Shown here: in pieces, positions 58,543-58,808 of the stretch | How positions within the stretch are numbered: position 1 is the stretch's first letter | Layout: every line of letters starts with the position of its first letter | Sequence record: OR670491 | Length of the DNA: 64,000 bases | DNA from: Escherichia phage vB_EcoM_JNE01 | Strand: one strand, 5' to 3' | Position numbers and translations under genes: made by a program | Notes under the pieces: generated by a model | What the model saw: only the letters and a program-made list of their open reading frames with translations | Database searches by the model: none | Told to the model about the DNA's origin: nothing

Positions 58543-58566
58543 TTCGAAAATAAAGAAAAAAAGTTC

Positions 58567-58594
58567 TTGACAAGTTAAAATGATGTGATATAAT
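58567..58594 (+). promoter_or_regulatory. strong sigma70-like promoter P1 (TTGACA-16-TATAAT) with upstream A-tract
   Basis: ttgaca 58567-58572, tataat 58589-58594, A-rich UP-like element upstream. Confidence 0.65.
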
Positions 58595-58658
58595 GAGCAT
58601 CACGAAGTAAGTTTTCAAAATCACATGATGTGAGATTGAAAAAAAAGAAAAAAAGTTG

Positions 58659-58686
58659 TTGACAAGGTTGAACGATGTGATATAAT
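58659..58686 (+). promoter_or_regulatory. strong sigma70-like promoter P2 (TTGACA-16-TATAAT), tandem copy of P1
   Basis: ttgaca 58659-58664, tataat 58681-58686; -10 flanked by inverted repeat GTTGAAC ... GTTCAAC. Confidence 0.65.
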
Positions 58687-58808
58687 GTTCAACATCAAGA
58701 CGACGAAGTGATTGACCTTTTTAAACACACGGATGATTCATGAAGTAACAAAGGAACTGATAAGTTAAAAATACTTTTAACACAGTTCCTTTACTTTTGC
58801 CATCGGAT

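Follow-up and report, generated by a model that had tools for sequence, protein, structure and literature searches.

Upstream of a MoxR-like AAA+ ATPase gene, the window (the whole 64,000-nucleotide stretch of DNA analyzed here) carries two tandemly duplicated, conserved promoter units, P1 and P2, whose sequences indicate that they are very probably strong promoters for the host RNA polymerase. The best explanation of the locus as a whole, to which we assign a probability of roughly 0.65, is that P1 and P2 are paralogous, near-consensus sigma-70 promoters feeding a leader, a terminator and the ATPase gene, and that the small palindromes around their -10 boxes are by-products. As such they are an ordinary though well-built case of a known design, strong host-type phage promoters in tandem. 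The window comes from a jumbo coliphage and, over the 3 kb compared, shares 99.7% of its nucleotides with Turkey5, an Escherichia phage of the genus Asteriusvirus.

Results

Both promoters lie on the + strand. At P1 (58567..58594), TTGACA (58567-58572) and TATAAT (58589-58594) are separated by a 16-nt spacer containing the TRTGn extended -10 element TGTGA (58584-58588), with a UP-element-like A-tract, AAAATAAAGAAAAAAAGT, upstream (58547..58564) and a predicted transcription start at about 58599-58602. P2 (58659..58686) repeats this arrangement, with the A-tract AAAAAAAAGAAAAAAAGT (58639..58656), TTGACA (58659-58664), a 16-nt spacer, TGTGA (58676-58680), TATAAT (58681-58686) and a predicted start at about 58691-58694. 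The -35 and -10 hexamers thus have the sequence and the spacing (16-18 bp, here 16) of sigma-70 (RpoD) promoters, scoring 12/12 (6/6 + 6/6) at P1 and P2 alike, with TG at -15/-14 in each. Two optional strength elements are also present at both, TGTGA abutting TATAAT and the UP-like A-tract. UP elements are A/T-rich segments at -38 to -59, and A-rich DNA at roughly -40 to -55 increases the activity of sigma-70 promoters via the alpha C-terminal domains. Of the 24 nt preceding the -35, 14 are A at P1 and 16 at P2, the second-highest and highest counts among the 37 perfect promoters described below. In P1, AAAAAAAGT (58556-58564), which would lie at about -46 to -38, agrees in 8 of 9 positions with the UP proximal subsite consensus AAAAAARNR reported by Estrem et al. 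(1998/1999). The discriminators, GAGCAT and GTTCAA, are A/T-rich.

The two units are detectably similar over 62 nt, at 82% identity (58546-58607 versus 58638-58699), and both contain the block GATGTGATATAATG unchanged, at 58582 and at 58674, with no further copy in the window. A preliminary, sequence-only reading had described two units of ~95 bp, each with an A-tract, TTGACA, a 16-nt spacer and an identical block; these elements are as described, and the repeat period is 92 bp rather than ~95. The pair would have originated by local duplication of a ~92-bp unit, with each copy offering host RNA polymerase four strength elements: perfect -35 and -10 hexamers, an extended -10 of the TRTGn type and, as a UP proximal subsite, an A-tract able to make contact with the alpha C-terminal domains.

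Such promoters are far more frequent in this phage than chance would allow. The motif TTGACA-N13-TGnTATAAT has three exact and four one-mismatch matches in the window, on the + strand only, against an expectation of 0.14 (>20-fold enrichment). Perfect TTGACA-N16-18-TATAAT sites number 37 in ~351 kb, compared with ~0.5 expected from Markov simulations, a genome-wide excess of about 70-fold, and 36 of the 37 are on the + strand, co-oriented with the genes. These counts are approximate: the ~351 kb comprises the window and pieces of Turkey5, a stretch of Turkey5 after 76 kb having been left out because the left end of the window mismatched Turkey5 at the collinear position. P1 and P2 are members of this host-type promoter family of the phage. 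Mimicry of a host sequence was also considered and rejected, as a comparison of the segment 58546-58830 with 5,426 complete E. coli genomes showed no similarity.

The early gene cluster is distant from the locus, which has virion-protein genes on one side and nucleotide-metabolism genes (ATPase/thymidylate synthase) on the other, a position that counts against the preferred explanation. Tandem promoters beside A-rich DNA might also mark a replication origin, with transcripts priming synthesis as at T7 primary or T4 R-loop origins. The phi1.1A/1.1B origin of T7 consists of tandem promoters beside A/T-rich DNA, a layout that P1 and P2 resemble by analogy. However, the window shows a flat, positive GC skew with no switch anywhere, there is no iteron array besides the promoter duplication, the neighboring genes are all co-oriented, and P1 and P2 are of the sigma-70 type, 37 sites of which are spread over the genome. 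We regard an origin as highly improbable and, with GC skew unchanged across the window, rejected it as unsupported.

A link to early transcription comes from the start sites. The initial transcribed motif of P2, ACATCAAGACGA (58692..58703, + strand), is the same as in early-region promoters of the phage: it is identical over 12 nt at Turkey5 11242, and the consensus TATAAT-RTTTACATCAAG occurs at Turkey5 10135, 13566, 13925, 14196 and 17055. The start-site motif ACATCAAG(ACGA) is common to P2 and the early-region promoters, and the P1 start-site sequence, CATCACGAAG, is related to it. We defined the early-region family as TTGACA-N16-..AGTACTG-TATAAT-RTTTACATCAAG-GC hairpin. P1 and P2 have its 16-nt spacer and P2 has its start-site motif, (T)ACATCAAG, to which that of P1 is related, but GATGTGA takes the place of the spacer motif AGTACTG, the GC-rich 5' hairpin after the start motif is missing (no hairpin adjoins P2, and the one at P1, H1, is AU-rich), and the locus is outside the cluster of small early genes. 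They are best called a sister sub-type of the early-region family. A second tandem array of A-tract promoters precedes the SSB gene (Turkey5 219.6 kb), and its first unit, with a promoter at Turkey5 219656, carries the same GATGTGATATAATG block; the tandem design therefore recurs before at least one other gene. The sequence-only reading had proposed regulated, very strong early transcription. Because P2 shares its initial transcribed motif with early-region promoters, strong and probably early transcription is a reasonable expectation, and P2 would most likely be active from the start of infection; the palindrome-based regulation did not hold up, as described below.

P1 and P2 are both present in 9/9 aligned Asteriusvirus genomes. 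P1 is conserved in all Asteriusvirus relatives (with TACAAT as the -10 in the PBECO4/G17/SP27 clade) and in Klebsiella phages, and the -35 and -10 of P2 are invariant in nine Asteriusvirus relatives, save for a -35 of TTGACG in ph0011. Klebsiella phages (K64-1/Muenster) have a single strong copy and a degenerate P2, whereas in SP27 P2 has been duplicated again to give three copies. With two in most coliphages, the copy number of the array would seem to be still shifting. Conservation ranges from 0.75 to 0.94 across P1, P2, H1 and the leader, compared with 0.78 and 0.845 for the flanking genes, so that these elements are as conserved as the flanking genes, or more.

The inverted repeats that the sequence-only reading saw embracing both -10 boxes are present, as GTGAT (58585-58589)/ATCAC (58599-58603) at P1 (58585..58603) and as GTTGAAC (58667-58673)/GTTCAAC (58687-58693), with N13 between, at P2 (58667..58693). 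P1 can also be read in an alternative register, TGATG (58581-58585)/CATCA (58598-58602). These repeats had been proposed to act as operators or as 5' hairpins of the transcripts. The left arms of both lie upstream of the -10, and the right arm of P2 ends at the predicted start. Thus, neither pair can fold in its own promoter's transcript, which argues against 5' hairpins, as do the weak predicted RNA folds (-6.7 kcal/mol at P2, -4.2 kcal/mol at P1). The P1 palindrome is distinct from the conserved stem-loop at 58612-58642 that opens the P1 transcript.

The arms are also poorly conserved. GTTGAAC/GTTCAAC is found in the window only and is absent from all ten aligned relatives; the corresponding positions read CCTGAAC...GACCAC in EcMJ, A4 and CMSTMSU (an unverified record) and TTGAAAC...GTTCAC in PBECO4, G17, SP27 and UE-S1. 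It hinges on one extra A, which only the window has among the ten relatives aligned, together with spacer differences, and through a one-base difference the relatives carry GATGTG(A)/(T)CACATC at P2 instead. At P1, the GTGAT/ATCAC arms are broken in three relatives (EcMJ, PBECO4 and CMSTMSU). TGATG/CATCA is retained in most Asteriusvirus relatives, A4 having CGTGA/TCACG and CMSTMSU no repeat at all, and the Klebsiella phages have an unrelated GCTGA/TCAGC. A regulon sharing these palindromes, for which a genome search had been suggested, did not emerge: GTTGAAC-N5-30-GTTCAAC does not occur elsewhere in the window, and no other perfect promoter in the ~351 kb of window and Turkey5 pieces has the same arms.

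Nonetheless, in every Asteriusvirus copy except P1 of CMSTMSU the -10 is still surrounded by an inverted repeat of 5-8 nt, although the arms vary. Against chance, the palindromes are weaker evidence than the promoter motifs: random flanks place a repeat of at least 5 nt about the -10 hexamer in 15% of cases and a repeat of at least 7 nt in about 1%. Among the perfect promoters of the phage we observed three repeats of at least 7 nt against 0.35 expected, an enrichment of about 9-fold. Given this enrichment and the persistence of 5-8-nt repeats across lineages, the -10 inverted repeats may have a structural or protein-binding role.

The specific proposal that they are operators, at which a dimeric DNA-binding protein of phage or host would shut the promoters off, is better applied to GATGTG(A)/(T)CACATC and TGATG/CATCA, whose arms are conserved, and even there we consider it unlikely. 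In most relatives, P2 has GATGTGA-TATAATGT-TCACATC, a perfect 7-bp inverted repeat centered on the -10; GATGTGA occurs three times (58582, 58627 and 58674) at a 45-47-bp spacing, forming the densest ATGTGA/TCACAT cluster in about 351 kb; the P1 repeat of A4 is altered in both arms yet retains 5 bp; and inverted repeats around the -10 are enriched, as noted above. However, the conserved arms are invariant in sequence wherever they are present, and so provide no real covariation test, and each has another explanation, one as the TRTGn extended -10 and the other as the start-site motif that early promoters carry without the left arm. Moreover, P2 of the window has lost the 7-bp form (GATGT-N13-ACATC) with no apparent harm, the spacing is unequal (9-12 at P1, 8-13 at P2), the three GATGTGA copies are products of duplication rather than independent events, the other inverted-repeat promoters in the census have unrelated arms (one is plainly a terminator), and we identified no candidate repressor.

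The repeat at P2 of the relatives amounts to TGTGA-N8-TCACA, a pair of CRP-like half-sites. CRP sites have the form TGTGA-N6-TCACA, with an N8 class reported, and P2 of most relatives, such as PBECO4, G17 and UE-S1, has perfect TGTGA and TCACA half-sites 8 bp apart (N8), centered on the -10. However, the spacing is 8 rather than 6, the flanks at P2 do not fit the 22-bp consensus, and TGTGA is also the extended -10. In the window, neither promoter has both half-sites: P2 reads TGTGA-N8-TCAAC, with its right half broken (TGTGA...TCAACA), and P1 reads TGTGA-N11-TCACG. In both units, the arms of the palindromes are largely built from TGTGA, the TRTGn extended -10, and (C)ACATCA, the family start-site motif. 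Together, these observations suggest that the P2 palindrome is probably incidental, and the small palindromes at P1 and P2 alike look incidental.

Between P1 and P2 lies a stem-loop, H1 (TTTTCAAAATCACAT G ATGTGAGATTGAAAA; 58612..58642, + strand), with 15-nt arms that are 87% complementary and that include the third GATGTGA copy. It would occupy about nt 11-42 of the P1 transcript, with its arms downstream of the predicted start, as expected of a 5' stem-loop. Its predicted fold (-9.1 kcal/mol, z -2.7) is accompanied by 88% conservation, compared with 78% for the upstream ORF, and its outer and inner stems are retained in relatives, although covariation is not clear.

Downstream of both promoters are a conserved leader and a terminator-like hairpin, which the sequence-only reading did not mention. 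The leader contains the motif (C)ACGGATGA (58729..58737, + strand) in a segment, 58720-58749, that is 94% conserved. The hairpin (58750-58792), AAAGGAACTG...CAGTTCCTTT, is followed by an interrupted T-tract, TTTACTTTT (58790-58798), the whole spanning 58750..58798 on the + strand, about 60 nt downstream of the P2 start. It is 93.5% conserved, with a predicted fold of -15.3 kcal/mol (z -5.5), and its 9-bp stem shows compensatory double changes at 3 of 9 pairs among 17 relatives. The element thus combines the stable stem-loop, U-rich tract and compensatory changes of an intrinsic terminator, and the annotation of phage G17 places an ARNOLD terminator at this hairpin. The leader up to this point would be ~105 nt from P2 and ~200 nt from P1. 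A second NGGAT motif follows the terminator (58803-58809), and NGGA(T/A) flanks the hairpin on both sides in the aligned relatives, with the exception of the upstream motif in L031. Two further candidate features of the leader were discarded: a leader peptide, ATGATTCATGAAGTAA..., of 11 codons in the window, which is broken in A4 and lacking from distant relatives, and a long-range pairing of 58525-58550 with 58719-58744, whose upstream arm is unconserved.

A third, weaker promoter, P3 (58790..58817, + strand; TTTACT, 16 nt, TGG and TATAAT; 10/12), is predicted downstream of the terminator. Its TATAAT is invariant in Asteriusvirus, reads TATCAT in Klebsiella phages and, in distant relatives, varies or is missing. 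Next comes the ribosome-binding site AAGGAA (58843-58848), and the gene behind it, the first that the three promoters would serve, encodes the MoxR-like AAA+ ATPase (58856-60187, + strand; 58843..60187 with the binding site). The protein matches the domains AAA and AAA_3 and phrog_1297 (ATPase, 7e-105) and is homologous to N4 gp24 and to genes annotated as MoxR ATPase. A second terminator-like hairpin with a T-run (60209..60236, + strand; 12 pairs, 5 of them GC, with a TTTTAT tail) stands behind it, which suggests that the ATPase gene is a separate transcription unit.

It is odd to find a full terminator between strong promoters and the ATPase gene, and all relatives share this design. Thus, a model in which more promoter simply means more ATPase may be incomplete. 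A possible alternative, to which we give appreciably less weight, is that P1 and P2 chiefly produce a non-coding RNA, short and abundant, or a leader that stays terminated until antitermination occurs. The P2 transcript (~105 nt) and the P1 transcript (200 nt) would end at the conserved hairpin and U-tract and act as a small regulatory RNA or bind a protein through the conserved NGGAU motifs; alternatively, the promoter and terminator would form a pair like lambda PR'-tR' (6S RNA), with a readthrough factor gating the ATPase. The tandem promoters would serve to overproduce the RNA, and P3 would give basal ATPase expression.

The layout itself speaks for this alternative. The order of extended -10 promoter, 55-110 nt, intrinsic terminator, NGGAT and ATPase start is found in 18/18 IMG/VR relatives, and the arrangement of promoter, short RNA and terminator is retained down to 53% identity of the ATPase protein despite a change of promoter class, from the canonical sigma-70 type here to TGAAACG-N13-TGGTATAAT in CBB/GAP32-like phages. 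Besides its compensatory changes, the stem keeps stable energies (-12 to -16.6 kcal/mol), and leader and terminator together are the best-conserved part of the locus (0.94). Terminator-overlapping promoters elsewhere in the window (29407, 40629 and 31201) start inside the hairpin and would thereby escape termination, whereas transcripts from P1 and P2 would include the whole hairpin. In several distant relatives, no promoter is recognizable between the terminator and the ATPase gene.

Conversely, several observations count against a functional short RNA. A search with Rfam 15 gave no match at the gathering score in the whole window and only chance-level hits (E at least 1) in 57500-60000, and no tRNA or tmRNA was found in the window. 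Complementary matches of 11-14 nt in the phage genome, none at a start codon, are at about the chance level, leaving no antisense target above chance, and a covariance-model search for paralogs of the leader and terminator recovered only the locus itself, making the unit single-copy. Conserved structure is limited to the terminator stem, and the 5' part of the leader is poorly conserved in sequence between genera. The hairpin could simply terminate the late operon upstream, the promoter having been fitted in ahead of it, and the U-tract of the coliphages is interrupted (TTTACTTTT), which predicts leaky termination. Of the phage PA5oct ncRNAs checked, none lies at the homologous place; ncRNA003 from its RNA-seq was rejected as support, as it adjoins structural and lysozyme genes rather than the ATPase homolog. 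The TGAAACG -35 class was likewise set aside for this phage: it is found at the homologous promoter of distant relatives (CBB/GAP32) and is not a recognizable class in this genome, and where TGAAACG occurs in the P2 spacer of PBECO4-type phages, it is in the wrong register for a -35.

Discussion

Our results support a model in which host RNA polymerase uses P1 and P2 as paired strong promoters. Rightward transcripts would cross the leader and reach the AU-rich intrinsic terminator hairpin with its interrupted U-tract, and the ATPase would be expressed by readthrough of this terminator together with initiation at P3 just behind it. The duplication would raise the frequency of initiation, as in other tandem strong promoters. 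The -10 palindromes would be by-products of the pairing of TGTGA with the start-site motif CACATCA rather than operators, an effect to which the one-base insertion in the window genome would add. Dependence on the host enzyme has been reported for the more distantly related phage PA5oct (PMC7318152). In the literature on Asteriusvirus, RaK2, phAPEC6, Sharanji and fEgEco12, we found no promoter or transcript mapping.

As it stands, the finding has little import beyond annotation. The ~37 perfect sigma-70 sites, the early family sharing one start motif and the tandem arrays ahead of the ATPase and SSB genes give Asteriusvirus jumbo phages a clear host-type promoter signature. The change in copy number of whole promoter units (one, two or three) among close relatives suggests a simple way to tune expression, and the compact, all-consensus units (UP + -35 + TRTGn + -10) could be strong parts for use in E. 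coli.

A broader reading, which we hold only tentatively, is that P1 and P2 are the coliphage version of a module with a functional short RNA common to all Rak2-like jumbo phages, by which we mean Asteriusvirus, Alcyoneusvirus and the CBB/GAP32/BF group. This module may consist of an extended -10 promoter located where a small conserved ORF has its stop codon, a short NGGAU-containing RNA and an intrinsic terminator, in every case immediately ahead of the MoxR-like ATPase gene. Its RNA could be an abundant phage small RNA, a protein sponge or an attenuated leader like lambda 6S that gates the ATPase; the promoter duplication could then serve RNA overproduction, and the -10 inverted repeat could be part of the control. 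If the main product is indeed a short RNA, the locus would be a conserved riboregulatory unit for a large, poorly understood phage group, tied to the widespread and functionally obscure phage MoxR/VWA gene pair.

Under the preferred reading of P1 and P2 as tandem sigma-70 promoters, several known systems offer comparisons. The tandem major early promoters A1, A2 and A3 of T7 are served by the host sigma-70 RNA polymerase. Like P1 and P2, they are very strong host-type promoters ~100 bp apart, in the same direction and the same transcription unit, and by analogy the likely purpose is a high initiation rate right after DNA entry. However, those of T7 occupy the end of the genome and did not arise by recent duplication, whereas P1 and P2 are mid-genome and clear paralogs (62 nt, 82%), vary in copy number among close relatives and have a terminator before the first gene. 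A-rich upstream regions are also found at E. coli rrn P1-P2 and at the early promoters PN25, P25 and P26 of phage T5. The rrn pair shares with the phage units a 16-bp spacer (in rrn P1), two promoters ~100 bp apart and an A-rich UP block, although the -35 of rrn P1 departs from the consensus and its discriminator, which serves growth-rate control, is GC-rich, unlike the all-consensus phage promoters with their A/T-rich discriminators.

The lambda module of PR', 6S RNA and tR', which depends on Q antitermination, likewise has a strong promoter, an intrinsic terminator 100-200 nt on and genes beyond, and produces a short RNA by default. The likeness to P1 and P2 is in layout only: we identified no Q-like protein, sigma-dependent pause element or binding element here, and the coliphage terminator looks leaky and has a further promoter behind it. 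A further comparison is the Rak2-like jumbo phage CBB, for which RpoD-like promoters with consensus -35 and -10 and an upstream A-rich, UP-like element have been reported and proposed to be early (PMC5259590). Although such promoters cluster in the early region of CBB, with no tandem duplication described, and the promoter upstream of its ATPase CBB_216 is of the TGAAACG-N13-TGGTATAAT class, they come from the same phage group and are of the same promoter type as P1 and P2.

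Promoter elements of P1 and P2

Each of the tandem sigma-70-type units, P1 and P2, joins TTGACA to TATAAT across a 16-nt spacer with TG at -15/-14 (58567-72 and 58589-94 in P1; 58659-64 and 58681-86 in P2), and the -10 box is preceded by TGTGA, an extended -10 of the TRTGn type. The sequence-only reading had described tandem duplicated promoter units, and the -35 and -10 boxes, spacers and common block GATGTGATATAATG all proved to be present, with the palindromes where it had placed them; the duplication of ~95-bp units stands, but with a measured period of 92 bp and an alignable unit of 62 nt at 82% identity. 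The block GATGTGATATAATG is the same in both units and has no further copy in the window. At about -46 to -38 of each unit, AAAAAAAGT agrees at 8/9 positions with the UP proximal subsite consensus reported by Estrem et al.

Promoter sequences of this kind greatly exceed chance expectation. TTGACA-N13-TGnTATAAT with at most one mismatch has 7 matches in the window where 0.14 would be expected, all of them on the + strand, and perfect TTGACA-N16-18-TATAAT occurs at 37 sites against ~0.5 in simulation across ~351 kb (the window plus pieces of the nearest relative, Turkey5), with 36 of the 37 on the gene strand. The upstream flanks of P1 and P2 are the most A-rich of all 37. Three more promoter-like sites lie in the 3' end of the upstream ORF (58375-58520): TTGCGA-N17-TATAAT followed by GTTTACATCG, TTGACA-N17-TACTAT and TTGACA-N17-TAAAAT, making six within 440 nt when P1, P2 and the weaker P3 are counted. 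Coding constraint may explain these three, as the same sequence encodes the conserved peptide SIMFTSLDRIC.

Genomic context and conservation

Both promoters occupy an intergenic region of 313 nt (58543-58855); among the window's 35 such regions only one is longer. Upstream lie genes for two virion structural proteins and a conserved ORF of 125 aa (phrog_15988, 14971, 15638); downstream are a MoxR-like AAA+ ATPase gene (58856-60187; phrog_1297, related to N4 gp24) and then a DUF2201_N/DUF2201 VWA-metallopeptidase-like gene. Over the surrounding 3 kb, Escherichia phage Turkey5 (PQ471516; 351 kb) shares 99.7% identity, and 34 other Asteriusvirus jumbo coliphages and Salmonella phages (PBECO4, 121Q, G17, phAPEC6 and others) share 80–87%; the Klebsiella Alcyoneusvirus phages RaK2 and K64-1 are less similar. 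Elsewhere, window 1-200 has no match where collinearity with Turkey5 predicts one (record 75816-76000), so one or more indels to the left of window position 54500 separate the two phages. A dispersed repeat of ~270 nt, 80% identical, links window 32195-32460, where only short minus-strand ORFs occur, with Turkey5 54130-54397 (L013 4130-4397), in an unannotated 680-nt gap.

In an alignment of ten relatives, P1 and P2 are present in 9/9 Asteriusvirus genomes; SP27 has a third promoter copy through a 97-nt duplication of P2 and the leader start, and K64-1 and Muenster keep P1, with P2 only in decayed form. Across five Asteriusvirus relatives, identity to the window is 0.75 for P1, 0.88 for H1 (the stem-loop between the promoters), 0.86 for P2, 0.94 for 58720-49 and 0.935 for the terminator, against 0.78 for the upstream ORF and 0.845 for the ATPase gene, so the non-coding elements are under constraint.

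The early region of Turkey5 (2.7-19 kb; L012), with small genes that each have their own spacer, carries a strict promoter family, a copy of which precedes many of these genes: AGT-TTGACA-N16 (ending AGTACTG)-TATAAT-RTTTACATCAAG, after which comes a GC-rich stem-loop (GGGGAGAA...TTCTCCCC). P2 has GTTCAACATCAAGACGA after TATAAT, and Turkey5 11242 carries the exact ACATCAAGACGA; this common start-site sequence makes P1 and P2 a sub-type among the host-type promoters of the phage. Three tandem A-tract promoter-like units also precede the SSB (gp32-like) gene (Turkey5 219636-219830; L015), with -35 boxes TTGAAC, TTGGAA and TGAACG, the first unit headed by GATGTGATATAATG as in P1 and P2, so tandem arrays recur ahead of at least one other gene. 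The third unit contains CCTGAAC-N7-GTTCAGG between the -35 position and the -10. Our search of the Asteriusvirus literature found a promoter or transcript map for no member. P1 and P2 agree with the RpoD-like promoters with UP-like elements of phage CBB, proposed to be early (PMC5259590), and with the 32 sigma-70-like promoters of PA5oct, which depends on host RNA polymerase (PMC7318152).

Inverted repeats around the -10 boxes

The palindromes had been read as operators or transcript 5' hairpins, and neither proposal found support. Among the aligned relatives GTTGAAC/GTTCAAC occurs only in the window; the region reads CCTGAAC...GACCAC in EcMJ, A4 and CMSTMSU and TTGAAAC...GTTCAC in PBECO4, G17, SP27 and UE-S1. 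One extra A in the window (GTTCAACATC versus GTTCACATC in relatives) creates the P2 palindrome and degrades the repeat found in relatives. The pair has no second copy in the window and none at any other perfect promoter. Both left arms, there and in the P1 pair GTGAT/ATCAC, lie upstream of the -10, so neither pair could form a hairpin in its promoter's own transcript; folded as RNA they reach only -6.7 (P2) and -4.2 (P1) kcal/mol, and a 5-nt inverted repeat embracing a -10 has a chance expectation of 15%.

A different repeat is conserved: at P1 it is TGATG/CATCA, and at P2 GATGTG(A)/(T)CACATC, which has 6–8 bp in every relative and 5 bp in the window. We consider it improbable that GATGTGA/TCACATC serves as an operator, although four observations leave room for some function: A4 altered both P1 arms and 5 bp still pair, Klebsiella P1 carries a 5-bp pair of unrelated sequence, inverted repeats of 7 nt or more around the -10 are enriched (3 observed versus 0.35 expected among 36 + strand perfect promoters), and the copies of GATGTGA at 58582 (P1 spacer), 58627 (H1 right arm) and 58674 (P2 spacer), 45 and 47 nt apart, form a cluster denser than any other of its kind in the genome. 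The left arm of the conserved repeat is the extended -10 and the right arm the start-site motif, which early promoters have without a matching left arm, so the complementarity can be a by-product. The P2 repeat of PBECO4-type phages (TGTGA-N8-TCACA) resembles CRP half-sites, whereas the window copy does not. H1 could be what is left of a third promoter unit, as TTTTCA-N16-GATTGA aligns with TTGACA-N16-TATAAT.

Perfect sigma-70 promoters at Turkey5 266660, 295673 and 279949 (L016, L017) also have the -10 in the loop of an inverted repeat of 9, 9 and 6 nt (GCGTTTCAA/TTGAAACGC, TATGTGCAC/GTGCACATA and GGGAGT/ACTCCC); the one at 266660 has a T-run and is plainly a terminator.

Leader, terminator hairpin and P3

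Three elements downstream of these promoters were absent from the sequence-only reading. H1 (58612-58642; -9.1 kcal/mol) is a conserved stem-loop that would open the P1 transcript. A long hairpin with TTTACTTTT (58750-58792; -15.3 kcal/mol, z -5.5) begins ~60 nt past the P2 start, and the G17 annotation places a terminator at its counterpart. Behind the hairpin lies P3, a third promoter (58790-58817; TTTACT-N16-TGGTATAAT), and next the ATPase ribosome-binding site.

The arrangement is shared by all 18 IMG/VR loci compared, with ATPase homologues of 53–90% identity: an extended -10 promoter over the small-ORF stop codon, 55–110 nt, a GC-rich hairpin with T-run, NGGAT and the ATPase start. In distant phages the promoter here is of the TGAAACG-N13-TGGTATAAT class listed in the CBB paper (PMC5259590). 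RNAalifold on 17 sequences gave a 9-bp stem with compensatory GC/AU exchanges at three pairs (7, 2 and 5 sequences). By sequence comparison, every Rak2-like jumbo phage sampled keeps a predicted module of promoter, 55–110-nt RNA and terminator directly upstream of the MoxR-like ATPase gene (window 58700-58811; around 1330-1470 in relatives L019-L036). The leader-terminator unit is single-copy in the genome and matched no Rfam family. NGGA(T/A) motifs flank the hairpin on both sides (ACGGATGA at 58730-37 and TCGGATT at 58803-09 in the window) and resemble CsrA-type GGA sites.

At 29407-29470, 40629-40690 and 31201-31250 a promoter-like -10 box stands directly before a terminator hairpin and T-run, as in TATAAT-gagaacttcaatatgaggttctc-attttttt. 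With the predicted start placed within the hairpin's left arm, transcripts arriving from upstream would terminate and those of the overlapping promoter would get through, a compact arrangement that this phage seems to use repeatedly. P1 and P2 differ in that the whole hairpin is transcribed.

In the main rival, the conserved module of promoter, short RNA and terminator is itself the functional unit, yielding an abundant small RNA or an attenuated leader like that of lambda PR'/6S, with the duplication boosting output. We hold that reading to be possible, at perhaps a quarter of the weight. That the promoters instead prime an origin seems very remote.

Interpretation

We favor, at a probability of roughly 65%, a model in which host polymerase uses P1 and P2, a duplicated pair of sigma-70 promoters with consensus elements throughout, probably from early infection. 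Transcription from them would reach the ATPase gene through a leaky terminator, P3 would add expression from downstream of that terminator, and the palindromes would be incidental. The earlier view of strong, probably early promoters is thus retained, without the palindromic operators or 5' hairpins. The interest of the locus lies mostly in the conserved leader-terminator module downstream of the promoters. The locus itself belongs to a well-known kind, the tandem strong host-type phage promoters with UP elements, and P1 and P2 are of the same kind as T7 A1-A3, the T5 early promoters and rrn P1-P2.
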